Origin: Minisyncoccota bacterium
Lineage (GTDB): Bacteria; Patescibacteriota; Minisyncoccia; Phycocordibacterales; Phycocordibacteraceae
Assembly: GCA_041664265.1 (NCBI GenBank)
Contig: JBAYLD010000003.1
Location: 7,988 to 71,987 of the forward strand
DNA: 64,000 bases
Reading direction: 5' to 3'
The translations under genes were made by a program, and so were the position numbers. This document shows, piece by piece, positions 1,048-55,667 of the stretch; positions within the stretch are counted from its first letter, which is position 1; every line of letters begins with the position of its first letter. The notes beneath the pieces are model-generated. The model did no database searches and had not been told where the DNA came from. It worked only from the letters and a program-made list of their open reading frames with translations.

Positions 1048-1058
1048 CGATCTTTGTT

Positions 1059-1138
1059 GTGCATACTCAGTATGCACATGAGCGCGACTATCCGCGTGTA
1101 CCTTAATTTACGCTATAGCGTAAATTAAGGTACACGCG
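1059..1138. repeat. Composite palindromic repeat element copy A: 19-bp palindrome GTGCATACTCAGTATGCAC (1059-1077) followed by 46-bp perfect palindrome CGCGTGTACCTTAATTTACGCTATAGCGTAAATTAAGGTACACGCG (1093-1138)
   Basis: Read directly from sequence; reverse complement identical; related copies at 9814-9887 and 55107-55146. Confidence 0.85.
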
Positions 1139-1152
1139 ATCATGTATAAAAA

Positions 1153-1183
1153 AGAAATCGCCCAACTCTGTTGGGCGATTTCT
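1153..1183. other. Perfect 14-bp-stem hairpin AGAAATCGCCCAAC-tctg-GTTGGGCGATTTCT (A-run on + side, so T-run on the minus strand)
   Basis: Seen in sequence; could terminate a minus-strand transcript or act bidirectionally after pilB-like gene. Confidence 0.4.
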
Positions 1184-1435
1184 ACTCTCGTTCCCGTCCC
1201 TATGTAAGCATATAGACGGTCGTTCGGCGCAGAACGATATGAGATTACTCACATCGTTCTGACCTCTCTTCCCGTCCATAATCCTCAAGGCAAAACCCGC
1301 AGTAACGCGGGGAAGACATAACACCTGAGGAGATTCCCAGCGCCACGACCGAAGTTGTGGACCAGAAAGTCCTTGGGGAAACGCCCAAAGCCGTCAAGCC
1401 TTGCCTAGAGGAGTATGAACAGGAGCAACGAACTG

Positions 1436-1444
1436 TGCTAGAAT
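1436..1444 (+). promoter_or_regulatory. Extended -10 promoter element TGcTAGAAT upstream of ruvB (ATG 1465), no Shine-Dalgarno
   Basis: TGn + TAGAAT 20 nt upstream of start; identical architecture upstream of PBP gene at 3637-3645. Confidence 0.4.
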
Positions 1445-1464
1445 GTTAGCATCACAGTATTTTT

Positions 1465-2466
1465 ATGTCAACCCCCCCCAAAGCCCCTCCCTCGACTTCT
1501 TCATCGCTTGATGCGGTGCTTCGCCCCGGCCATTGGGACGAATATGTCGGCCAAAAACAGGTCAAAGCGAACGTGCGCATTTCGATTGATGCGGCGAAGA
1601 AGCGCGGCGGCATGCCGGAACACTTCCTCTTCTACGGCCCGCCAGGCGTCGGCAAGACGACCCTCGCGCACCTCGTCGCCGCGACGCTCGAATCACCACT
1701 AAAGAGCACGTCGGGAGTCGCTATCGAGCGCGCTGGAGATCTCGCGGCAATATTGACCAACCTTGAGCCGCACACAGTGTTGTTTATAGATGAAATCCAT
1801 CGGCTTTCGAGAAAAATAGAAGAGCTCCTCTATCCTGCTCTTGAGTCGGGACATCTTGATATCGTGCTGGGAAAAGGCCCCTCGGCACGCACGGTCGAGC
1901 TCGCGCTCCCTCCCTTCACACTCGTCGGCGCTACCACGCGCGTCGCCGAGCTCTCAGGGCCGCTGCGCTCGCGCTTCGGCGGCGGCGTCTATCAGCTCGA
2001 CTTCTATAATGATGAAGATTTACGCGATATTATCCGCCGTTCTGCCCGCCTGCTCGAGCTCAGGGCGCCCGATGAGGTGATCGAGCGCATCGCGGCGCGA
2101 AGCCGCGCGACGCCGCGCGTCGCGAATGCACTTCTAAAGCGTGTCCGCGACTTCTCTGAAGTCCACGAACGCAAGCTCTCTGGGTCTCTTTGCGACGAGG
2201 CATGCGAACTCTTCGGCATTGATGCGTTCGGCCTCACCAAAGATGATCGCCGCTACCTTGATACCCTTCTCCAGGGATTCCGCGGCGGCCCAGCGGGTGT
2301 TCGAGCGCTTGCCGCAGCTATACATGAAGAACCCGACACTCTCGAGAACGTCTATGAGCCCTATCTGCTCCGCCTCGGCTTTATCGAACGCTCCTCGCGC
2401 GGCCGCATCCTCACCCCCAAAGGCCGCGCTTATTTGAATGGTGAAAAACTTGATGCTATTTTTTGA
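1465..2466 (+). CDS. ruvB: Holliday junction branch migration helicase RuvB
   Basis: AAA+ Walker A GPPGVGKTT, Walker B LFIDEIHR, RuvB C-terminal winged helix region; full length 333 aa. Confidence 0.95.
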   Translation: MSTPPKAPPSTSSSLDAVLRPGHWDEYVGQKQVKANVRISIDAAKKRGGMPEHFLFYGPPGVGKTTLAHLVAATLESPLKSTSGVAIERAGDLAAILTNLEPHTVLFIDEIHRLSRKIEELLYPALESGHLDIVLGKGPSARTVELALPPFTLVGATTRVAELSGPLRSRFGGGVYQLDFYNDEDLRDIIRRSARLLELRAPDEVIERIAARSRATPRVANALLKRVRDFSEVHERKLSGSLCDEACELFGIDAFGLTKDDRRYLDTLLQGFRGGPAGVRALAAAIHEEPDTLENVYEPYLLRLGFIERSSRGRILTPKGRAYLNGEKLDAIF

Positions 2467-3651: not shown

Positions 3652-5805
3652 ATGTCTCCTCATCGCACACAGCGGCATACTGTTATAACTTCTCTCCTTG
3701 TCCTTTTTGGGCTTGGACTTATTTTTGCCGGCGGTATTCTTGTATTAGTAGCGATCACTCCTGTGCCCGATATTAGTTCCTTTGCGAGCCGACAGATCAA
3801 CCAGTCGACAAAAATATACGATCGTACTGGGCAGGTTCTCTTATACGATTATAATCGGGACGCGAAGCGAGAGATTGTTCCGCTCGTATCCATGTCTCCT
3901 CATGTCATACAATCGACCATAGCGATCGAGGATTCGAGTTTTTATACACATGGCGGCATCCGCCTCACCTCTATCGTTCGCGCGATGATTGCTGATGTTC
4001 TTGGGGGTTCGCTTTCCCAAGGAGGTTCAACCATCACCCAGCAGGTGGTGAAGAATACGCTCCTCACAAATAAAAAAAGTGTGGTGCGTAAAATACATGA
4101 GTGGGCGCTCGCACTTCGACTCGAACAAGCCTACTCAAAGGACCAGATACTCGAGACCTATCTTAACAATATCCCCTTCGGGGGTACGCTCTATGGCGTC
4201 GAGGCGGCATCAGAGGCTTATTTCGGGATACCTGCAAAGGATCTTTCTGTTGCGAAGTCGGCATATCTCTCAGCTATGATACAGGCTCCTTCATTTTATT
4301 CGCCGTATGGGGCGAATCGCGCAAAACTCGATATGCGCAAAAATCTTGTGCTTGACCGCATGCGCGCACTCGGCTTCTTAGATGACGCCGCATATGCGTC
4401 CGCAAAAACAGAAGAGGTTTTGTTTGCCCCTGCGGGCCAGAACGCAATCATCGCGCCGCATTTCGTTTTTTATATCCTCAACCAGCTCGAAGAAAAATAT
4501 GGGAAGAATGCTTTGATTGGGGGGTTAAAGGTGACCACCACGCTTGATGCTGATCTCGAGACAAAAGCAGAATCAATAGTGAACAGCTACGCGCTTAAAA
4601 ACCAGAAGGATTTTAACGCATCAAATGCCACTTTGGTCGCGATCGACCCCCCGACGGGGCAAATTCTCGCGATGGTGGGCTCGCGCGACTTCTTTGACAC
4701 GACTATCGACGGGCAATATAATGCCGCGCTTGCCCTACGGCAACCAGGTTCGACCATGAAGCCGTTTATCTATTCGCTCGCCTTGATGCGCGGCTATACG
4801 CGCAACACGGTCGTCTTTGATACACCGACGCAATTCTCAACAGCTTGCAGACCCTTTGATGTCACGAACAACACACCACCCTGCTACGCTCCTGAAGACT
4901 ACGATGGCGCCTTTCGCGGCCCAATGACCTTTGAGACAGCACTCGCCCAATCGATCAACATACCCGCTATTAAGGTTCTTTACTTGGTTGGCATACAAAA
5001 CGCCATACATTTTGCAAAATCATTCGGGCTCACCACCCTCGGCGACCCGAGCCAATACGGCCTCACGCTCGTGCTCGGCGGTGGCGAAGTGAGGCTTCTC
5101 GACCTCACAGGCGCCTATGCCGCCTTCGCGAATGATGGAGTACAGAACACGCCCACAGGCATCCTCGAGGTGAATGATGCACAAGGGAATGTGCTTGAGC
5201 GCTATACCGCATCACCAGTCGTTGTAGCACCTACAAATATCGCGCGTGATATTTCAGCCATGCTTTCTAACGCCCAGGCGCGCCTACCAGAATATCCACT
5301 GAATTCTCCTCTCTCCTTCTCTGGCTATGACGTAGCGGTTAAGACAGGTACGACCGATGACACCCGTGACGCATGGGTGATCGGCTACACCCCCTCTATC
5401 GCCATCGGCGTCTGGACGGGTAATAATGACAACTCGAAGATGGTCAAATCTGTCGCTGGATTTATCGCGGCACCGATGTGGCATGAGGTGATGGCGTATG
5501 CGCTTTCAAAATATCCCCAGACATATTTTGGTGAACCAAGCCCGCTCTATGCCTCAGTACCGCCGATGTTGCAGGGGAATTGGCGTATACCTGATGCACA
5601 AGGAAATATCGTCCCGCACAGCCTCTTATATTGGACCGATAAACAAAATCCACAAGGAGCGCCTCCTTCAAATCCTGCACAAGACCCTCAATTCGCGTAT
5701 TGGGAGTATGGTGTATCTGCTTGGTACAACTCCCACCCCAACCTCTTCTCTGGAGGCGTCATGCTCCCTGTCCCGCTTTCTAATAACACTACTGTCGCTC
5801 AATAA
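3652..5805 (+). CDS. Class A penicillin-binding protein (bifunctional glycosyltransferase GT51 / transpeptidase), N-terminal membrane anchor
   Basis: GT51 motifs EDSSFYTHGG, GGSTITQQ; transpeptidase STMKP (SxxK), SFN-like and KTGT motifs; TM helix residues 12-35. Confidence 0.9.
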   Translation: MSPHRTQRHTVITSLLVLFGLGLIFAGGILVLVAITPVPDISSFASRQINQSTKIYDRTGQVLLYDYNRDAKREIVPLVSMSPHVIQSTIAIEDSSFYTHGGIRLTSIVRAMIADVLGGSLSQGGSTITQQVVKNTLLTNKKSVVRKIHEWALALRLEQAYSKDQILETYLNNIPFGGTLYGVEAASEAYFGIPAKDLSVAKSAYLSAMIQAPSFYSPYGANRAKLDMRKNLVLDRMRALGFLDDAAYASAKTEEVLFAPAGQNAIIAPHFVFYILNQLEEKYGKNALIGGLKVTTTLDADLETKAESIVNSYALKNQKDFNASNATLVAIDPPTGQILAMVGSRDFFDTTIDGQYNAALALRQPGSTMKPFIYSLALMRGYTRNTVVFDTPTQFSTACRPFDVTNNTPPCYAPEDYDGAFRGPMTFETALAQSINIPAIKVLYLVGIQNAIHFAKSFGLTTLGDPSQYGLTLVLGGGEVRLLDLTGAYAAFANDGVQNTPTGILEVNDAQGNVLERYTASPVVVAPTNIARDISAMLSNAQARLPEYPLNSPLSFSGYDVAVKTGTTDDTRDAWVIGYTPSIAIGVWTGNNDNSKMVKSVAGFIAAPMWHEVMAYALSKYPQTYFGEPSPLYASVPPMLQGNWRIPDAQGNIVPHSLLYWTDKQNPQGAPPSNPAQDPQFAYWEYGVSAWYNSHPNLFSGGVMLPVPLSNNTTVAQ

Positions 5806-5843: not shown

Positions 5844-6944
5844 CTATTGATTCATTGGGGAGACAAGATAGAGGAGTGAGGTATCCCCTACCCCTTTTAT
5901 AATCAGCGGGCGGCCGATGCCTGCAGCAGTGAGTGAGAGGCTCTCAGTGGTAGTAAGTGAGAGTGCTGCTAAAAGATAGCGATAATTAAAAGAAAGATCG
6001 AGTGCGCTCCCCGCTATGCGAGCAGAAAGCGTCTCTGACGCTTCGCCTACATCAGTATTCTTCGCGAATAAAGAGAGTGTATTCTTTTTTGGATCAAAAC
6101 TTAAGCGCACTTTCTGAAAAGAGTCTGAAAAGATGGTTGTTTGTTTTAACGCATGTTCAAAATCTTTTCTCAACACTATTGCCTCAACAATTGATTCTTT
6201 CGGGATTATCTGACGATAATCAGGATATACCGAATTCGTAAGCCGAGATACCAACATACCACTCGTGCTCACAAACGCGCATTGATGTTCATCAAACGAC
6301 ATTATAATGTCGTCATCTGGTAGCGCTTGTGCTATATCAAGGGCATTTTTTGCAGGAATGAGGAATTTCCCTTGTGTTCCTTTGTTTATAAGAGGTATTT
6401 TTTTCTCTGCAAGCCGAAATGAGTCTGTCGCAACCGCAGTTAAGATACCCCCTTCTATTGAGATATAGATACTCGCAAGTTCTGGGCGAACAGTTGAGGA
6501 TGAAGCACAAGGCGCAAGAGAAGAAAATAGAGCGCGCAGAAGAACTCCCGGGAGGACAATCCTATTTTTGGGGTTCTCGGGAAATGGGATTGAAGGAAAA
6601 TCCTCATACAGAACAGTCCGTATAGAACTTTTCCCCATGCCGCTTGTGAGCGATACGATATCTCCAGTGTGTTCTAGAGTAATAGTTCCTCCTGGAGTGA
6701 GTGTGTGTGCTATTTGTTGTAGTATCGTTGAGGGTAGGGCTACCACGCCGTGAGTTTTGCATTCTCCTTCAATTTTTAAATCTATTCCCGTTTCAAGATT
6801 TGTTGCACGCATCTTTATCCCATCATCCCCAGCAATAATAAGGATGGTAGAGAGTGCAGGGAGTGTCGTACTCTTACGTTCTGCGAATCGAGCAACAGTA
6901 GAGACTGCTTCAGAGAATATTTTTTTATCTATTGAAATATACAT
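5844..6944 (-). CDS. dnaN: DNA polymerase III beta sliding clamp
   Basis: 366 aa, three-domain clamp pattern, position immediately downstream of dnaA. Confidence 0.9.
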   Translation of the reverse strand: MYISIDKKIFSEAVSTVARFAERKSTTLPALSTILIIAGDDGIKMRATNLETGIDLKIEGECKTHGVVALPSTILQQIAHTLTPGGTITLEHTGDIVSLTSGMGKSSIRTVLYEDFPSIPFPENPKNRIVLPGVLLRALFSSLAPCASSSTVRPELASIYISIEGGILTAVATDSFRLAEKKIPLINKGTQGKFLIPAKNALDIAQALPDDDIIMSFDEHQCAFVSTSGMLVSRLTNSVYPDYRQIIPKESIVEAIVLRKDFEHALKQTTIFSDSFQKVRLSFDPKKNTLSLFAKNTDVGEASETLSARIAGSALDLSFNYRYLLAALSLTTTESLSLTAAGIGRPLIIKGVGDTSLLYLVSPMNQ

Positions 6945-8651: not shown

Positions 8652-8966
8652 GTGTTTCCGCGCAAAGAACGGTTTCCGCGCGCGCTCTTCCCCACCGCTT
8701 TAAAGACTGGCCGGCGACTCTCGTCAGCACATCTGACGATCCTCGTCCCAAGAGAAGGAAAGGGATATGCGGTGGTGGTGTCAAAAAAAGTGGCTCGTCT
8801 TTCAGTCAAGAGGAATCAAATAAGGCGCCGAATCCTCGCAGCGCTCCGCCGGGCACCCCTAGACGGAAAGACCCTCCCTCCGGCGCTTATTGTTTTTCCC
8901 CGTTCTTCTGTGAGTAGTGTAAGCTATAAAGATATTAAGGTAGAACTTATGCAACTTATTCCGTGA
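8652..8966 (+). CDS. rnpA: Ribonuclease P protein component (GTG start)
   Basis: Small basic protein directly after rpmH, RnpA-like RNR motif region (KRNQIRRRI), 104 aa. Confidence 0.85.
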   Translation: MFPRKERFPRALFPTALKTGRRLSSAHLTILVPREGKGYAVVVSKKVARLSVKRNQIRRRILAALRRAPLDGKTLPPALIVFPRSSVSSVSYKDIKVELMQLIP

Positions 8967-9694
8967 TATCAGCTTTTTTCCACACCGTCTTCTATAATCC
9001 GATCTACAATGCGCTCGTTGCGCTCGTTGCGCTCGTGCCTGGCTCTGATGTGGGTATTGCTGTCGTGTTGCTCACGATCGGTATTCGGCTTATCCTCCTC
9101 CCCTTCTCCCTCTCGGCGGCGCGTACCCAGCGCGCGATGAAGGCTTTAGAGCCAAAAATCAAGGAATTGAAGGATAAACATAAGGGCGATAAAGAAAAAG
9201 AGGCGCTTGAGACTCTCGCACTCTATCGCGAATCGCGTGTGAACCCATTTGCGAGCATTTTGACGGTTTTTATCCAGATACCGGTCCTTCTCGCGCTCTA
9301 TTGGGTGTTCTATTATGAGCCGTTTTCAACGATTAATACGGCTCTGTTGTACCCGTTTACCCCCACCCCCGGCACCGCGTCACTTGAATTCCTCGGGCTC
9401 ATCTCAGTCGCAGGTAAGAGCATTACGCTCGCGGTGCTCGCGGGGCTGACCCAATTCCTCCAAGCACACATGGCGCTCAGAGGGACCATGAGCCCAGCGC
9501 ACAGCAGTGCACAAGGGGATTTCCAGAAGATTATGGGCATGCAGCTCAAATATGTCTTCCCCTTCCTTATTGGCATTATTTCATATACAACTTCTGGAGC
9601 TGTGGCGCTTTATTTCATTACCACCAACCTCGCGGGCTCGCTCCAAGAATGGCACGTCCGGCGCAAACTCGACGCCGAAGCCCTACATACATAG
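8963..9694 (+). CDS. yidC: Membrane protein insertase YidC/Oxa1 family, short form (GTG start)
   Basis: 5 TM core with conserved YidC helices, 243 aa, follows rnpA. Confidence 0.9.
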   Translation: MISAFFHTVFYNPIYNALVALVALVPGSDVGIAVVLLTIGIRLILLPFSLSAARTQRAMKALEPKIKELKDKHKGDKEKEALETLALYRESRVNPFASILTVFIQIPVLLALYWVFYYEPFSTINTALLYPFTPTPGTASLEFLGLISVAGKSITLAVLAGLTQFLQAHMALRGTMSPAHSSAQGDFQKIMGMQLKYVFPFLIGIISYTTSGAVALYFITTNLAGSLQEWHVRRKLDAEALHT

Positions 9695-9712
9695 GGCTGC
9701 CCTATGTATGTA
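9684..9712. terminator. 13-bp-stem hairpin TACATACATAGGG-ctg-CCCTATGTATGTA overlapping the yidC stop codon; 23-nt core repeated at 31971-31993
   Basis: Perfect inverted repeat seen in sequence; weak T tract follows. Confidence 0.4.
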
Positions 9713-9736
9713 GGAGCAGTCTTTCTTCTGAGACAT

Positions 9737-9767
9737 CTCAATATCAAGGCGAAACCTTGATATTGAG
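9737..9767. other. Perfect hairpin CTCAATATCAAGG-cgaaa-CCTTGATATTGAG in yidC downstream spacer
   Basis: Seen in sequence. Confidence 0.5.
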
Positions 9768-9813
9768 GTATCCCCTATTTGTGCGGTCGTCGCATTTAGG
9801 GGTTAAACTGAAT

Positions 9814-9887
9814 GTACCTTCATTTACGCTATAGCGTGAAATATGGTACACACTCATCGTTCCAATCTGTGCATACCCAGTATGCAC
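9814..9887. repeat. Composite palindromic repeat element copy B (inverted order relative to copy A): degenerate GTACC-TTTACGCTATAGCGTGAAA-GGTAC palindrome (9814-9849) then GTGCATACCCAGTATGCAC (9869-9887)
   Basis: Shares CGCTATAGCG core and GTGCATAC..GTATGCAC palindrome with 1059-1138. Confidence 0.8.
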
Positions 9888-9917
9888 AACTTAAACCTTA
9901 CACCTTACCGCTTACGC

Positions 9918-11114
9918 CTAGAGCGAGTAGCTCCAGAGGGAGTCGTCGTTTTTGTTTAGAAACACGAGTGTTGTGGCATCTGGGTCGATCGCGAGCGCAG
10001 TGGCGTCGAGAGAATCCCCGGTTTCTTCTGGGAAATCGAGCACCAGCTGCGCATAGCGGCCCTCGACTTCGATCTTCCAAATCCGATCAGAGAACTGCAC
10101 AGCTCCCTGGTACCAATCATCCGGATACACAGAGTCAGTAGGAGGGTCGAGCGGGATACCGCAGTATACTGAAGAGTCGTCAGCGGCCCACACGCATTTA
10201 TCGACGATCGTAGTGACCGGGAGTGATGTGATGTCGCCCGTCTCGGTGTCAACAAGATCTAATTGCAGAGCGTTATCGAGGACGTAGCTCACCAGCGCCC
10301 ACTTCCCTGAGGGGCTCGCGAGGGCGACGAGACCGTTGAGCGGTCCGGCGATTCGGGAAAAGCGCCCAGCGTCATCGACAAGAAAGGCAGCCCCAGGGAG
10401 TGTGGCGGCTGGCTTGGTATACGCGAGATAGCGCGATTTGCCAGCAAATGAAACACGCAGCGCAGAGAGCGGGGTGCTAAACAGCTCTGCCGTACGCACA
10501 TCGTTTGTGGTACTAAGTGTCGCAACAGAACCAGTGACACCCGAGACGAGTGTGAGCACGCCCGCCGAAGAAACAGCGAGAGCAGAAATATTTTGCGGCA
10601 AAAAGAATCCTTCTGGTGGCGCCTCGGAGCGCGCCGGGAGTGCGTAGGTATTGATCGTAGAGAAATCTTCGCCGGAGAGGTACCGGACGAATGCCGTTTT
10701 TGCATCGGGGACCCACGCGGCAGATTGGATACCCGGGATCGTTTGATTATTCGTTCGGGTGACGGCTCCTGTGCGTGTGCTATAGGAGAAAACGTTTCCG
10801 CTCTGCCGTTCAATATAGTGCACCAGCGTCTCGGGAGAGGAACTTGCGTTTATCGCAGGGGCATTCACCACGGCCTCGCCCGGCACTACCGGTCCCACGC
10901 TTATCTTCACGAGCCGCGCGGATATGGGGGTCGGTTCGCCCGCGGGTGTCGTGGTGCCGGAGTCTGCAGGAAATATACCCTGCCCCGCTAGAGGGAGGTT
11001 TACGTTTGGCGCGACGGTGAGGCTCGCTTTGGGGGTGAAGAAATAGAAATAGACGAACGCACCTACTCCTATCAGGAGTATCAGAATCGCGGCGATGATC
11101 AAGATGCGTCGCAT
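9918..11114 (-). CDS. Membrane-anchored hypothetical protein (N-terminal TM, ~370 aa extracytoplasmic Ser/Thr-rich beta-rich domain); last gene of T4SS-like operon
   Basis: TM helix RRILIIAAILILLIGVGAFVYFYFF; no recognisable catalytic motif; start taken at second Met of ORF 9918-11144. Confidence 0.55.
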   Translation of the reverse strand: MRRILIIAAILILLIGVGAFVYFYFFTPKASLTVAPNVNLPLAGQGIFPADSGTTTPAGEPTPISARLVKISVGPVVPGEAVVNAPAINASSSPETLVHYIERQSGNVFSYSTRTGAVTRTNNQTIPGIQSAAWVPDAKTAFVRYLSGEDFSTINTYALPARSEAPPEGFFLPQNISALAVSSAGVLTLVSGVTGSVATLSTTNDVRTAELFSTPLSALRVSFAGKSRYLAYTKPAATLPGAAFLVDDAGRFSRIAGPLNGLVALASPSGKWALVSYVLDNALQLDLVDTETGDITSLPVTTIVDKCVWAADDSSVYCGIPLDPPTDSVYPDDWYQGAVQFSDRIWKIEVEGRYAQLVLDFPEETGDSLDATALAIDPDATTLVFLNKNDDSLWSYSL

Positions 11115-11118
11115 AGCA

Positions 11119-11895
11119 TTATGGCGTAGGTACGTTGCACCCAACCACGAGGCTTAAACTACCCGGACACGTAAGGGTATTCGTTTTTGGGTCGACGCTC
11201 GTGACTTGGGCGGTTTTCCCGTCTGGGCTTAGGCATTTAGGTTGCTGGGGCCTCCCAGGGATAGCAGAGCAGCTTTTTATGGTGTTCTTGCAATCAGGAT
11301 CATTGGTGCAGAACATCAGTCGCAGGCTGGGGTCGGTAGATACTATTGAGTTTAATCCTCCTGCAAGTGGCGGAGGTGTGGGTGCTATTGGCACTCTTGT
11401 TGATGTTGATGATTTGGTATCGAGTGCCGGAAGGTTCAACGAGAGATTTAGGATGTTCGGATTGATAATGGAGAAGACGATTGCCGGCGAGAGGACGAGG
11501 ATAAGGCCGTATATGGCGTTGTAGATTTTCCCCTTATCATCAGTGATGGTACTGACCGCGTCTTTATGGAAGTAAGCGATATCGAGTCCGGACCATATGA
11601 TCTGGATGATTGCGAGTATCGCGGCAAGCCCGATGAGATATTTATAGAGATTATTGAAGAAGGTGGCGAGCGAAGTTGAATTCACCACACTCGTCACACT
11701 AGCATCAGTAAGTCCGGGGATGGGCGCGAGTGCGACGAAGCTGACACATTTGTTTTCCGCACAAGAAAGCCCCGAAACACAGTCGTTATCGCTCGTACAA
11801 GCACTTCCATTCTGACCGGTACCCGCAGCGAGCACATACGGCGCAAGCCCAAAGAAAAGAGACAAGATTGCTGCAAAGAGGACTGTTTTTCTCAT
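11119..11895 (-). CDS. Secreted cysteine-rich protein with central double-TM hairpin; candidate VirB2/TrbC-like pilin subunit
   Basis: Signal peptide, two hydrophobic helices (LIGLAAILAIIQIIWSGL / IYGLILVLSPAIVFSII) resembling T4SS pilin fold, operonic with VirB4. Confidence 0.4.
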   Translation of the reverse strand: MRKTVLFAAILSLFFGLAPYVLAAGTGQNGSACTSDNDCVSGLSCAENKCVSFVALAPIPGLTDASVTSVVNSTSLATFFNNLYKYLIGLAAILAIIQIIWSGLDIAYFHKDAVSTITDDKGKIYNAIYGLILVLSPAIVFSIINPNILNLSLNLPALDTKSSTSTRVPIAPTPPPLAGGLNSIVSTDPSLRLMFCTNDPDCKNTIKSCSAIPGRPQQPKCLSPDGKTAQVTSVDPKTNTLTCPGSLSLVVGCNVPTP

Positions 11896-31970: not shown

Positions 31971-31993
31971 CATACATAGGGCTGCCCTATGTA
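31971..31993. repeat. 23-nt hairpin CATACATAGGGCTGCCCTATGTA, identical to 9686-9708
   Basis: Exact repeat seen in sequence. Confidence 0.8.
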
Positions 31994-42260: not shown

Positions 42261-43730
42261 TTGGAAATGCTACGGCGCATCCCCTCTGAAGTCACCACCG
42301 TCTCGACGAAGCTACGTGAGGCGGGCTTCGAGTCCTATCTAGTGGGCGGATGCGTCCGCGACCTTATCATGGACCGGGAGCCCAAGGATTGGGACATCAC
42401 TACCAACGCGGCGCCAGAGCAGATCCAAGGCCTATTTCCTGATTCTTTTTATGAAAACGACTTTGGCACAGTCGGCGTGAAAACAAATTCAGAGGATCCG
42501 CGCCTCGCCATAGTGGAGATAACTCCGTATCGCACCGAATCAGGATATTCTGACAAGCGCCGGCCCGATAAGGTAGAGTTCGGCACTTCTCTCCTTGAAG
42601 ATCTTGCCCGACGCGACTTCACCATAAACGCAATCGCACTCGATGATTCTCAAGGACACATTGTTGATCCGTACGAAGGACAAAAGGACATAAAGGACAA
42701 GATGCTGCGTGCCGTCGGGACGCCTTCAGAACGTTTTAACGAAGATGCTCTGCGCATGTTGCGTGCAGTTCGATTGGTCGCTGAACTCGATTTTGGCATA
42801 GACGGCAACACCGCGATGGCAATAAGCGAAAATAGCAAGCATCTAAGCCATGTTTCATGTGAAAGGATCCGGGACGAACTCGTGAGAATCCTCATGTCGA
42901 GCCAGCCCATGAATGCGCTTATTCTCGCAGAAAAGCTCGGCATCCTTGAGTTTGTCGCTCCAGAACTCGCCAAAGCTATTGGTGTTGAGCAGAATCAGGC
43001 GCACAGTTACGATGTCTTTGAACATCTGATGAGGACAGTCCAGCATGCCGCAGACAAAGACCTCAGTCTTGAGGTACGCCTCGCTGCCCTGCTCCACGAC
43101 ATAGCAAAGACGGAGACGCGTCGCCGTTCAGATGAAAAGGGCGATTGGAGCTTCCATGGCCACGAGGTGGTTGGTTCACGTGTAACAAAGAGGATTCTCG
43201 AGAATTTGCGCTTTCCACGCGAAACAATTGATAAAGTCCTCAAACTCGTCCGTTGGCACATGTTCTTCTCTGACCCAGAACAAATTACCCTCTCTGCAGT
43301 GCGCCGCATGATAACGAACGTCGGTAAAGAAAATATATGGGATTTACTCAACCTCCGGATGTGCGATCGGATCGGCACCGGTCGGCCTAAAGAACAGCCC
43401 TTTCGGCTCCGTAAGTACACGGCGATGGTCGAACAGGCGCTCCGTGACCCTATATCGGTAGTTATGCTTAAGACCGACGGGAACCGAATTATGGAGAAGT
43501 TCCACGCGAAACCAGGACCCAACATAGGCTATGTATTGAATGCTCTTCTTGAGGACGTGCTTGAGGATCCTGATCTAAATAATGAGGAATACCTTGATAG
43601 AAAGACTGAAGAGCTCCTAAAAATGCCTGAAGAAGATCTCAGAAATCTTGGGGAATCAGGGAAGAAACGGAAAGAGGCGGAAGAAAGCAAGGAAATAGGC
43701 GAAATAATGGGGAAGTACCACGTCTCCTGA
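42261..43730 (+). CDS. cca: CCA-adding tRNA nucleotidyltransferase with HD domain (TTG start)
   Basis: PolyA_pol head motif GGCVRD...DWDI, HD motif (LLHDIAK), 489 aa; consistent with tRNA genes lacking CCA. Confidence 0.9.
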   Translation: MEMLRRIPSEVTTVSTKLREAGFESYLVGGCVRDLIMDREPKDWDITTNAAPEQIQGLFPDSFYENDFGTVGVKTNSEDPRLAIVEITPYRTESGYSDKRRPDKVEFGTSLLEDLARRDFTINAIALDDSQGHIVDPYEGQKDIKDKMLRAVGTPSERFNEDALRMLRAVRLVAELDFGIDGNTAMAISENSKHLSHVSCERIRDELVRILMSSQPMNALILAEKLGILEFVAPELAKAIGVEQNQAHSYDVFEHLMRTVQHAADKDLSLEVRLAALLHDIAKTETRRRSDEKGDWSFHGHEVVGSRVTKRILENLRFPRETIDKVLKLVRWHMFFSDPEQITLSAVRRMITNVGKENIWDLLNLRMCDRIGTGRPKEQPFRLRKYTAMVEQALRDPISVVMLKTDGNRIMEKFHAKPGPNIGYVLNALLEDVLEDPDLNNEEYLDRKTEELLKMPEEDLRNLGESGKKRKEAEESKEIGEIMGKYHVS

Positions 43731-44117
43731 ATAAGTTATGTGTGAAATATGTTCCGCGCGAAACAAAAAACCGCCTAACCCAAAAATGGTGGCCAGAAGC
43801 AAAAAGTGAGAAAGGGGCGTTGATGGTGCTTCCAGCCGAGAGGGGGGTCGGCGGCTTTTTATAGTGCTACCCGTATGTTCCATATGGAACGTCATGTCCT
43901 GTTGGCTTGTAGAGCGGATCGCCGCTAGCGCAGACAGACACCGCAAGAAATACGGAAAGCGAAAGATCAATCAAAGAACTACCAACAGGAGACGGGACCT
44001 CACCGAAGTAACGAGCCATCTCCTCCTTAGTGAAGAGTAGCGGGTGTAAAGGACAGTGTAAAGGACACCACTGTGGATAACATGTCCTTTATCTGGCACT
44101 ACCTGGTAGTACTGGGC

Positions 44118-54329: not shown

Positions 54330-54575
54330 ATGGCTACAACAAAGGAACGGATTTTGGTGACCCTTACGCCCGAGATGTCTCGGGAATTAAAGGCACGTGC
54401 TAAACGTGAAAAAAGTCCTCGAGCAACAATTGCAACACGTCTGCTTCGAGATGCGATAGAAGATATTTCTGACGAAGAAGACCGTTACCTCTCAGTAGTC
54501 GGTGACCGGATACTTGCAACAACGAAACGTTGGTATTCGCACGAAGAAGTTTGGGGGAAGAATTGTGGGAAATAA
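54330..54575 (+). CDS. Type II antitoxin (ribbon-helix-helix/RelB-DinJ-like)
   Basis: Small acidic protein with N-terminal RHH-like region, immediately upstream of RelE/ParE-like ORF. Confidence 0.6.
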   Translation: MATTKERILVTLTPEMSRELKARAKREKSPRATIATRLLRDAIEDISDEEDRYLSVVGDRILATTKRWYSHEEVWGKNCGK

Positions 54576-54580
54576 AACCC

Positions 54581-54844
54581 ATGTACCAAATCCAATACTC
54601 GGGTCATGTACGATCTGTAGAAATTCCTAAGCTGGATCCTGCGATAAGGATGGTCATCCTGCAGGCAATTGAACTCAAGCTCATGACCGCACCTGAAGTG
54701 TTTGGAAAACCTCTTCGACATACGCTACGTTTGTTGCGAGCGCTTCGTGTTGGTGATTGGCGGGTAGTCTATCAGCTCTCGGGCGAGGTTGTGTACGTGG
54801 TGACCATCCGACACCGCAGACAAGGCTATGACGATCTTTCATAA
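54581..54844 (+). CDS. RelE/ParE family type II toxin
   Basis: C-terminal RVGDWRVVYQLSGEVVYVVTIRHRRQGY signature; start at MYQIQYS inside ORF 54530-54844. Confidence 0.7.
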   Translation: MYQIQYSGHVRSVEIPKLDPAIRMVILQAIELKLMTAPEVFGKPLRHTLRLLRALRVGDWRVVYQLSGEVVYVVTIRHRRQGYDDLS

Positions 54845-55667
54845 AACAAAGAAATCACTCGGGCAGAATTTTTTGATGCATACGCGCATCGCAGAGCGAA
54901 TTGCTGATGCGGCCAAGCTCGCATCGGATGCGACTGTGCTCGAGATCGGTCCGGGGACGGGGATGCTCACGCGAGAACTTTTGAAAAAAGCGAAAAAAGT
55001 AATCGCAGTTGAGGCCGACCAAGAACTTTTTGAAAAACTACAGGCTGATTTTGCAAGTGAAATCGCCTCTGGTCAGCTCGAGCTCATCTACGGCGACATC
55101 CGCAACGTGTACCTTAATTTACGCTATAGCGTAAAAGATGGTACATCTGAAAAGTATGAAATAGTGGCGAATATTCCGTATTATCTGACCGGGGAGATTT
55201 TCAGAATGTTCCTCACGGCCGAGCATCAGCCAAGCTCGATGACGCTCTTGGTGCAGAAAGAGGTTGCGGAGAGAATAGCGCGGAGCAACCCCGACGCGAA
55301 GCGGTCGGGGCCCCGACCAAAGCGTCGGGGGAAAGAATCAATTCTCTCGCTCTCGGTTAAGGCGTTTGGGATGCCAAAGTATGAATTCACGGTCCCGCGC
55401 GGCGCCTTCATGCCCGCACCCAAGGTAGATTCTGCAGTGCTCGCTATCCGCGACATCTCGCGCAAGAATTTTGCCTCGCACGCCCAAGAGGAACAATTTT
55501 TCAAACTTTTGCACGCCGGATTCGCTCATAAGCGCAAATTTGTCCGCAAAAATCTCTTGGAGGCTTCGCTTCCGCAAGGCGAGATCCCAGAGAAGGCTCG
55601 TGCCGAGGATGTACCGCTTGAAACATGGCTTGCTTTGAGCAAGGTCGAGGGGCTCGCAACTCTGTAG
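54828..55667 (+). CDS. rsmA: 16S rRNA (adenine1518/1519-N6)-dimethyltransferase RsmA/KsgA, with a palindromic repeat element copy embedded in-frame
   Basis: GQNFL, EIGPGTG SAM motif, ANIPY motif. Confidence 0.9.
   Translation: MTIFHKTKKSLGQNFLMHTRIAERIADAAKLASDATVLEIGPGTGMLTRELLKKAKKVIAVEADQELFEKLQADFASEIASGQLELIYGDIRNVYLNLRYSVKDGTSEKYEIVANIPYYLTGEIFRMFLTAEHQPSSMTLLVQKEVAERIARSNPDAKRSGPRPKRRGKESILSLSVKAFGMPKYEFTVPRGAFMPAPKVDSAVLAIRDISRKNFASHAQEEQFFKLLHAGFAHKRKFVRKNLLEASLPQGEIPEKARAEDVPLETWLALSKVEGLATL
55107..55146. repeat. Palindromic repeat element copy C (GTGTACCTTAATTTACGCTATAGCGTAAAAGATGGTACAT), degenerate right arm, inside rsmA coding sequence (encodes ...VYLNLRYSVKDGT...)
   Basis: Left arm and core identical to copy A at 1097-1125. 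Confidence 0.8.

Follow-up and report, generated by a model that had tools for sequence, protein, structure and literature searches.

The rsmA (ksgA) gene in a 64 kb stretch of contig JBAYLD010000003.1 (hereafter, the window), from a genome of Candidatus Kaiserbacteria (Parcubacteria, candidate phyla radiation (CPR)), encompasses an in-frame palindromic element of a family that we denote F1. In related genomes, inverted pairs of F1 palindromes bracket a gene for a small PaaX-like protein without the C-terminal ligand domain of PaaX, which we call mini-PaaX. The segment in rsmA has been acquired in certain lineages only and occupies a tolerant loop of an rRNA methyltransferase. Judging from sequence comparison, we give roughly even odds (about 0.5) to the proposal that this segment is a PaaX-type operator that was captured in the coding loop and that selection maintains at the DNA level.

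The letters at positions 55107-55146 are GTGTACCTTAATTTACGCTATAGCGTAAAAGATGGTACAT; the left arm and core of the rsmA copy, CCTTAATTTACGCTATAGCGT, are perfect, and its right arm, AAAAGATGGTACA, is of the stop-free 'B' type. The translation is (N)VYLNLRYSVKDGT, in the context ..DIRNVYLNLRYSVKDGTSEKYEIVANIPYY.., and bears out the sequence-only reading of the window, which had placed this peptide between the S-adenosylmethionine (SAM)-binding region and the ANIPY motif. A search of the whole window with a 23-mer at up to three mismatches returned three F1 loci only (0 expected, from 100 shuffles), and a covariance model of 44 family members found exactly these three copies (E ~1e-13 to 1e-14), the next-best match having an E value of 0.29; the in-frame palindrome described earlier is one of the three. 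Copy 1 is intergenic, with the stop codon of a PilB/T2SSE-like open reading frame (ORF) 46 nt before it, and copy 2 is located between the convergent yidC gene and an ORF at 9918-11144. Positions 55106-55135 match 1095-1124 at 30 of 30 bases, and the rsmA 40-mer is 93% identical to 1095-1134 overall, so that the reported identity with the intergenic copy stands, although the coordinates given for it, 1097-1121, were one base off (GTGTACC begins at 1096). The spurious ORFs over the other copies read ..VYLNLRYSVN and MYLHLRYSVKYGT.., as had been claimed. The earlier description was otherwise correct but included neither the link to a regulator gene nor a second in-frame hairpin insert in rsmA.

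By its domain and motifs, the host ORF is assigned to RsmA/KsgA: PF00398 is present in all 120 listed RsmA homologues, GPGTG (the SAM motif) and the catalytic NIPYY are invariant among the orthologues, and the KsgA structures 6ifs and 7v2l match residues 7-266 (E 2e-36). The most variable stretch of the protein, among 33 orthologues with 68-82% identity, is that between GDIR and (V/L)VANIPYY. The element form of this loop, ..(Y/H)LN(L/S)RYSVKDG.., is confined to ~26% of 144 Kaiserbacteria-level RsmA sequences and a YPL..TTTV/TAIA..GY form accounts for ~10%; the commonest loop is the shorter, canonical TFDISxLPKGY, without the element. In an AlphaFold2 model (mean predicted local distance difference test score (pLDDT) 65), residues 97-107 are modeled as coil at pLDDT values under 50; a short helix precedes them, and the strand running into NIPYY follows. 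Insertion into a tolerant loop, one of the two origins considered in the sequence-only reading, is in accord with the restriction to a subset of orthologues and with the low-pLDDT coil, but a clean 40-bp insertion is ruled out. Compared with the canonical loop, the net increase in length is just +7 aa (+10 aa for the WDFEMYLNSRYSVKDG form), the loop of B. subtilis KsgA is equally long, and in the near-identical alleles L048 and L060, the entire loop segment is swapped as a cassette (62 nt vs 41 nt). The upstream part of the L048 gene resembles the short-loop allele L060, and its loop and downstream part resemble the F1 allele L024; this mosaicism points to homologous recombination between Kaiserbacteria populations. 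A single origin of the F1 allele finds no support in a neighbor-joining tree of RsmA (226 masked columns; poorly resolved, with recombining alleles, all genomes compared being metagenome-assembled genomes (MAGs)), in which F1, F2 (a second hairpin type) and short forms are interleaved, the loop states are patchy and sister alleles differ in loop state.

The conservation of the element concerns its nucleotides. In a codon alignment of 13 F1-bearing rsmA genes (66-82% protein identity), codon identity, that is, the share of pairs with the same amino acid that also have the same codon, is 1.00 in all 13 consecutive codons of the element, against ~45% elsewhere in these genes. Fully identical columns make up 13 of 13 within the element and roughly 5 of ~230 outside (Fisher p = 7e-18, on counts in which the ~5 invariant outside columns were tallied by eye), and the synonymous constraint ends at the element edges. 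With zero synonymous change in the element and saturation in the rest of the gene, selection or spread must act on the DNA. Orthologues that keep the segment with divergent nucleotides, the finding that the sequence-only reading had named as contrary to its view, were not seen: in other species, the segment is retained with nearly identical nucleotides (consensus (A/G)TGTACCTTAATT(T/C)ACGCTATAGCGTAAAAGATGGT(A/G)CAT).

The element is in-frame in rsmA of at least 13 species, invariably in one frame. A single one of the six combinations of orientation and frame is stop-free, and just with the B-type right arm, and this is the combination observed; a non-palindromic right arm is needed because the perfect palindrome reads GTA AAT TAA, with a stop, in the rsmA frame. 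The rsmA copies of different species are closer to one another than to the other copies in their own genomes, as expected from descent plus constraint rather than from recurrent insertion of copies resident in each genome. The right-arm variants of the rsmA copies, AAAGATGG, AAATGAAGG and AAAACAAGG, are each found in intergenic copies too.

The F1 family is low-copy, unlike the families of repetitive extragenic palindromes (REP), miniature inverted-repeat transposable elements or Rickettsia palindromic elements (RPE). A scan of 185,579 species genomes with the pattern CTTNATTYACGCTATAGCGT returned 36 stretches. MAGs of Kaiserbacteria, Paceibacteria or Patescibacteria are the source of 31 of these, at 3-5 copies in each MAG under the strict pattern; the other five either are without symmetric arms or look like chance matches in other phyla (two Nitrosomonas, one Arsukibacterium, one Prevotella). 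The rsmA copy accounts for nine or ten of the real matches, and no other coding sequence was found to host F1; the rest are intergenic, and a covariance-model search of 452 kb of related loci detected no F1 beyond the partners of known copies. The ends of the element read (C/A)(A/G)TGTACC...GGTACA(C/T)(G/A), and the outer arms covary such that the dyad symmetry is kept (GTACC/GGTAC, GCACC/GGTGC, ACACTT/AAGTGT, ATTGTCT/AGACAAT); most copies have mismatches at three or four positions of the central arms, which results in a conserved A/B asymmetry. Most solitary copies lie 3-60 nt past stop codons or between convergent genes, and the copy downstream of yidC is orthologous in L028, where it is 37/40 identical to the window copy and the flanks have diverged.

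Two inverted F1 copies, 700-750 nt apart, flank the mini-PaaX gene in locus after locus (L006, L008, L010, L019, L020, L021, L029, L033, L035, L038 and L122), and every mini-PaaX gene examined has two inverted palindromes around it. The paralogues in L004, L015, L019, L080, L103 and L118 each have their own palindrome pair, with CTATAG or ACG(G/A)(T/C)CGT at the center, and the distant mini-PaaX genes of L123 (Yonathbacteria) and L125, whose products are 35-42% identical, have a pair with other arms and the same CTATAG center. Mini-PaaX proteins consist of ~180-220 aa (~214 aa for the conserved Kaiserbacteria gene), compared with 316 aa in PaaX. They match PF20803, PaaX_M, the Cas2-like central domain of PaaX (E 1e-19), and the PaaX equivalog TIGR02277 (E 8e-10, below the full-length cut-off), and the family profile matches the winged helix of E. 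coli PaaX (PDB 8a39, E 1.5e-4); the alignments span PaaX model positions ~36-160 only, and no transposase family is reported among the matches. Across Kaiserbacteria, mini-PaaX is 73-100% identical, exceeding the conservation of RsmA; its 5' neighbors are a sigma-70-family gene and a gene for a small membrane protein. The upstream palindrome terminates at the mini-PaaX start codon (GGTACATG) in all loci checked, and in 9/9 F1-type upstream copies, the gene-proximal arm TA(G/A)(A/G)AT is followed, after 7-8 nt, by ATG. This arrangement resembles a -10 box followed by a leaderless start, in which case the operator would overlap the promoter. A DnaA-box-like motif, TTATCCACA, perfect or near-perfect, is present 10-20 nt 5' of the upstream F1 copy in L006, L010, L020, L021, L029, L035 and L038.

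PaaX represses its own promoter by steric hindrance, through the operator TGATTC(N27)GAATCA (review, PMC9493321). This operator is a dyad of ~39-40 bp with 6-bp arms, closely comparable to TGTACC-N26-GGTACA in F1; mini-PaaX shares the winged helix and the Cas2-like central domain with PaaX, and its upstream site overlaps the start of its own gene and probably the promoter. Mini-PaaX, a predicted regulator, differs from PaaX in that it lacks the C-terminal phenylacetyl-CoA-sensing domain, its loci in CPR have no paa pathway context, its sites lie on both flanks of the gene, with one more within a coding sequence, and its sites have a conserved CTATAG or ACGRYCGT center. The bracketing, the paralogue-specific pairs, the PaaX homology and the matching operator geometry together lead us to regard F1 sites as predicted cognate operators of a mini-PaaX repressor, ~40 bp long and centered on CTATAG, with 6-bp inverted outer arms ~26 nt apart. 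A mini-PaaX dimer would bind such sites and autoregulate, like E. coli PaaX at Px, and rsmA would be a recurrent target. In Kaiserbacteria, the site would have been captured within the rsmA coding sequence, in the stop-free orientation and with the B-type arm, and would be maintained by selection at the DNA level, the peptide YLN(L/S)RYSVKDG being a by-product. Binding at this site might impose a transcriptional roadblock, control genes further downstream or have no effect.

Across lineages, rsmA is tied to mini-PaaX-type palindromes in two ways, either within the loop or upstream of the gene. In the more distantly related rsmA loci L080, L103 and L118, a mini-PaaX gene with its palindrome pair is directly upstream of rsmA, such that the downstream palindrome falls 50-200 nt before the rsmA start. 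In other lineages, palindromes of at least three such families fill the same rsmA loop. Medium-sized loops are made of other mini-PaaX-type palindromes, in the same phase and with a Tyr codon at the element start: the L068 loop, GTATCCCCTATTTTCTGCTATAGCAGAAAATAGGGGATAC, is a perfect 40-mer with arms resembling the L015 and L103 pairs, and the L047 and L050 loops have ACGACCGT centers resembling the L004 pair. F2-type palindromes are present in this loop in other lineages; downstream of yidC, F2 followed by F1 in tandem is found in the window and in L028, L037 and L041.

Several observations weigh against the operator proposal. We infer the operator role of F1 from position and homology, and mini-PaaX, without the C-terminal phenylacetyl-CoA-binding domain, is not a complete PaaX; tblastn with three mini-PaaX paralogues found no mini-PaaX gene in the window. 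The scan pattern fixed the core and one arm, and the invariance of the core is partly due to the search. In the rsmA copies of L024, L048, L051 and L057, the outer arms are unpaired and the inner 30 nt are invariant, which would be surprising if recognition depends on the outer half-sites. The solitary copies at window position 9809 and in L026 and L030 have no obvious promoter next to them and are placed like REP or terminator hairpins. The patchy loop states and the mosaic alleles imply frequent turnover by recombination or mobility. Finally, in distant Parcubacteria (L056, L078, L112 and L118), unrelated hairpins occupy the same rsmA loop, which suggests a general tolerance or a hotspot and not a specific regulatory need. 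One of these, TGGCCAACACCNGGTGTTGGCCA, is shared by L056, L061 and L063; in L078 (458-590), the loop contains GTCATTCCCGCG..CGCGGGAATGAC, translated as ..IPAKVGI..DSRLRGNDE..; that of L112 is a 35-bp perfect palindrome, and that of L118 a 50-nt GC-rich hairpin.

These observations lend weight to an alternative that we consider possible, if less probable than the operator, namely, that F1 and F2 are selfish or mobile palindromes, akin to REP or RPE, which spread by transposition, homing or gene conversion. Under this alternative, the rsmA loop would be a tolerated hotspot, the bracketed mini-PaaX would be an analogue of the REPtron that maintains or propagates its own repeats, and the identity of nucleotides across species would reflect recent or recurrent spread rather than a host function. 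There are precedents in the in-frame palindromes of Rickettsia and in the intragenic REPs at a fixed site of recB, and the patchiness on the RsmA tree, the occupation of one loop by at least three palindrome families along with unrelated hairpins, the many solitary copies past stop codons or between convergent genes, the sharp edges of conservation and the recurrence of all rsmA right-arm variants in intergenic copies are all as expected of such elements. The same holds for a second, independently distributed hairpin insert in rsmA, 150 nt downstream of the first, that encodes NPDAKRSGPRPKRRG (-31 kcal/mol, z = -4.6). It is absent from most orthologues; the peptide is identical in P0005, P0011 and P0012, whose first loops are different. 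Small hairpin inserts are found at this position in other orthologues (KPLDSARG, VGNPERSRG, KPYSAKATKG), and L097 has a 100-nt hairpin of -63 kcal/mol at the second site. No further copies of the GC-rich insert were found in the window or in loci L001-L041.

RPEs are ~100-150 bp long and occur in tens of copies in many unrelated genes (Ogata et al. 2000, 2002, via PMC10969869). Like RPE, F1 is found in-frame in a conserved housekeeping gene as well as in intergenic regions, and extends a surface loop by a peptide while leaving the protein intact, but it is 40-46 bp long, is present in 3-5 copies, uses a single site in a single gene, is linked to a regulator gene and belongs to another phylum (CPR/Patescibacteria). 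In the REPtron, a gene for a REP-associated tyrosine transposase (RAYT) is flanked by REPs (PMC3733652). The resemblance of F1 to REP extends to the imperfect palindrome of 20-40 bp, the location after stop codons and between convergent genes, the single-copy gene between two inverted copies, which is the REPtron architecture, and the intragenic copies found now and then at one fixed position in a gene for repair or replication. However, F1 lacks the GTAG/CGTC tag, its copy number is orders of magnitude below the hundreds typical of REP, and the protein it brackets is of the winged-helix/Cas2-like kind, not an HUH-Y1 (IS200/IS605-like) transposase. By size, copy number, host range and RAYT content, then, F1 is outside the RPE and REP families, and it fits PaaX-type operators in geometry and in the predicted domain content of the partner protein.

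What further argues against selfish spread is that F1 copies hold conserved orthologous positions across species (the mini-PaaX flanks, the yidC 3' end and rsmA), with none extra in the 452 kb; that the bracketed protein is a PaaX-type winged-helix regulator rather than an HUH/RAYT or DDE transposase; that the loop changed by cassette replacement between mosaic alleles and not by clean insertion; and that rsmA copies resemble those of other species more than the remaining copies of their own genomes. Target-site duplications are not visible either: aligned flanks of ~48 F1 copies show no consistent direct repeats, a palindromic GTAC duplication being indistinguishable from the arms. If selfish spread is nevertheless the explanation, the Rickettsia phenomenon of palindromes in proteins extends to CPR, with a non-HUH protein partner. 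A variant of this scenario that we deem improbable is that mini-PaaX and its palindromes make up an unrecognized self-maintaining CPR module, organized like the REPtron with a winged-helix/Cas2-like protein in place of the HUH transposase, which would copy its cognate ~40-bp palindrome into a few preferred sites, including the rsmA loop, by homing or gene conversion. The loop of an essential enzyme would then be repeatedly rewritten by whichever palindrome family is resident.

It is also rather unlikely, in our assessment, that F1 acts as an RNA hairpin, that is, as a stabilizer or terminator after genes, by sequestration of the start codon at mini-PaaX, and by modulation of translation or decay in rsmA, possibly when bound by the Cas2 domain, which resembles an RNA recognition motif. 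The predicted folds are strong (z from -4.8 to -11.7; the hairpin in rsmA has -16.7 kcal/mol and z = -4.8), stop codons precede many copies by 3-60 nt, the mini-PaaX start codon is inside the 3' arm, some arm differences are T/G and could form G-U pairs (columns 9/42, 18/33 and 19/32), and the longer lineage-specific rsmA loops nearly always encode hairpins, whatever their sequence. Against such a role, the conserved mismatches that most copies share (columns 13, 15 and 16) are not wobble pairs, and rsmA copies with eroded stems keep their letters, which implies that sequence, not pairing, is what is kept. Moreover, the protein is homologous to a DNA-binding repressor, and the perfect dyad symmetry and the 6-N26-6 geometry suit a dimeric DNA site. 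No U-tract follows the F1 hairpins, and consensus scans call neither an intrinsic terminator nor a sigma-70 promoter within F1 at any of the three window copies. No F1 copy matched an Rfam 15 covariance model at the gathering threshold or at E<=1, and a known RNA family was also discarded on the Rfam scan of the window, which gave just four tRNAs and noise.

Derivation of the intergenic copies from the segment in rsmA, as the sequence-only reading had entertained, or a merely coincidental resemblance, is very improbable: the canonical loop codons RTF...KGY (CGT ACC TTT ... AAA GGN TAC) do bear weak inverted ends like the element termini (L058, L059) and the frame over copy 2 yields an rsmA-like peptide, but 30/30 identical nucleotides compare with 0 expected, the segment is missing from most RsmA orthologues, the family flanks mini-PaaX where RsmA lacks the segment, the CTATAG-centered palindromes around mini-PaaX in relatives at the Yonathbacteria level effectively refute derivation from rsmA, and the stop codon of the perfect palindrome in the rsmA frame marks the rsmA copy as the derived, stop-free variant. 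A mimic of 16S rRNA helix 44/45, as in autoregulation by KsgA, was dropped, given that the likeness of the right arm, CGTAAA(T/A)(T/C)AAGGTAC, to the conserved 16S segment GUCGUAACAAGGUAACC is loose, short and gapped and that the family is anchored at the mini-PaaX gene, not at rsmA; a search of the literature collection used here for autogenous regulation of ksgA found nothing.

Should the operator proposal be correct, one DNA stretch would carry two codes, with a palindrome dictating 13 residues of an rRNA methyltransferase that is essential and conserved universally, and mini-PaaX, the bracketing sites and rsmA would constitute the first regulon-like circuit in Kaiserbacteria/Parcubacteria, where, to our knowledge, almost no regulation has been characterized. 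Full-text literature searches turned up no earlier account of PaaX-like genes bracketed by palindromes, nor of CPR proteins with in-frame palindromes. Whether the palindromes are operators or selfish elements, peptides such as YLNSRYSVKDG, YPLNTAIAENKGY, WPTPGVGQ and NPDAKRSGPRPKRRG in CPR proteins are translated palindromes and should be masked in alignments, phylogenies and structure models.

Table 1 Features of the window (positions counted from its first letter)
Feature	Positions	Strand	Remarks
rsmA/ksgA	54828..55667	+	279 aa; 16S rRNA A1518/A1519 dimethyltransferase; hosts an F1 copy
F1 copy in rsmA	55104..55149	+	in-frame; dyad-symmetric element of 40-46 bp, core ACGCTATAGCGT
F1 copy 1	1093..1138	.	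perfect 46-bp palindrome, halves CGCGTGTACCTTAATTTACGCTA and TAGCGTAAATTAAGGTACACGCG
F1 copy 2	9809..9854	+	A/B type, right arm GAAATATGGTACA; 85% identical
F2-type hairpin	9773..9808	+	TATCCCCTATTTGTGCGGTCGTCGCATTTAGGGGT; immediately 5' of F1 copy 2
Third palindrome	1056..1078	.	TGTGCATACTCAGTATGCACA; adjoins F1 copy 1
Third palindrome, second copy	9868..9890	.	TGTGCATACYCAGTATGCACA; 17 nt past F1 copy 2
Second rsmA hairpin insert	55288..55335	+	in-frame; tandem GC-rich CCCCGACGCGAAGCGGTCGGGG + CCCCGACCAAAGCGTCGGGG
Palindrome at yidC stop	9682..9714		CCTACATACATAGGGC and GCCCTATGTATGTAGG; overlaps the stop codon
Palindrome at yidC stop, second copy	31971..31993		22 kb away
Palindrome in yidC 3' region	9732..9772		GACATCTCAATATCAAGG..CCTTGATATTGAGGTATC
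dnaN	5844..6944	-	origin region
dnaA	7056..8441	-	origin region
rnpA	8652..8966	+	origin region
yidC	8963..9694	+	origin region
parS-like palindrome	43172..43187		TGTTACACGTGAACCA; 1 mismatch
parS-like palindrome	43750..43765		TGTTCCGCGCGAAACA; 2 mismatches
Candidate small non-coding RNA	1153..1471	-	sigma-70-like promoter 1471->1443; terminator stem 1183->1153
Toxin-antitoxin-like pair	54330..54844		directly upstream of rsmA

The window includes an origin region, with DnaA-box-like 9-mers in the dnaA-dnaN spacer, a cumulative GC-skew minimum at ~9.5-10.5 kb and, in the window as a whole, 26 DnaA boxes with up to one mismatch (7.8 expected). The distance from this region to two of the F1 copies is no more than 8 kb. 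The parS sites of ParB are likewise palindromes, few per chromosome, some of them intragenic, conserved in nucleotides and with one at or in the gene of the binder. The F1 copies of the window, the only genome region for which this placement is known, all lie within 46 kb of oriC. However, F1 was rejected as parS because it does not resemble the consensus TGTTNCACGTGAAACA, a parS-like site is found elsewhere in the window and no ParB-like protein is involved. The two parS-like palindromes (Table 1) compare with 0.1 expected by chance.

The 220-bp spacer 3' of yidC is a cluster of five different hairpins. The third palindrome and its second copy are arranged in mirrored order relative to their F1 copies. 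The candidate small non-coding RNA has a promoter of the form TTGACA-17-TAACAT with TG, followed by three hairpins and a strong terminator, a stem with a T-run. The end of this terminator is 15 nt away from F1 copy 1, and the candidate RNA has no Rfam match. In L028, too, a strong promoter, TTGACA-N17-TATAAT (~5200-5228), follows an F1 copy. The toxin-antitoxin-like pair consists of an 81-aa ribbon-helix-helix-like ORF and a 104-aa ParE/RelE-like ORF, the latter overlapping the rsmA start; L002 has the same arrangement, with an 89-aa ORF without a Pfam match followed by a 93-aa ParE_toxin ORF. Just 5' of rsmA in RIFOXYD1_FULL_47_14 (L002/L003, 6384-9440), the UvrD gene contains an intein (PF14890), its product having 1018 aa compared with 641 aa in L001.

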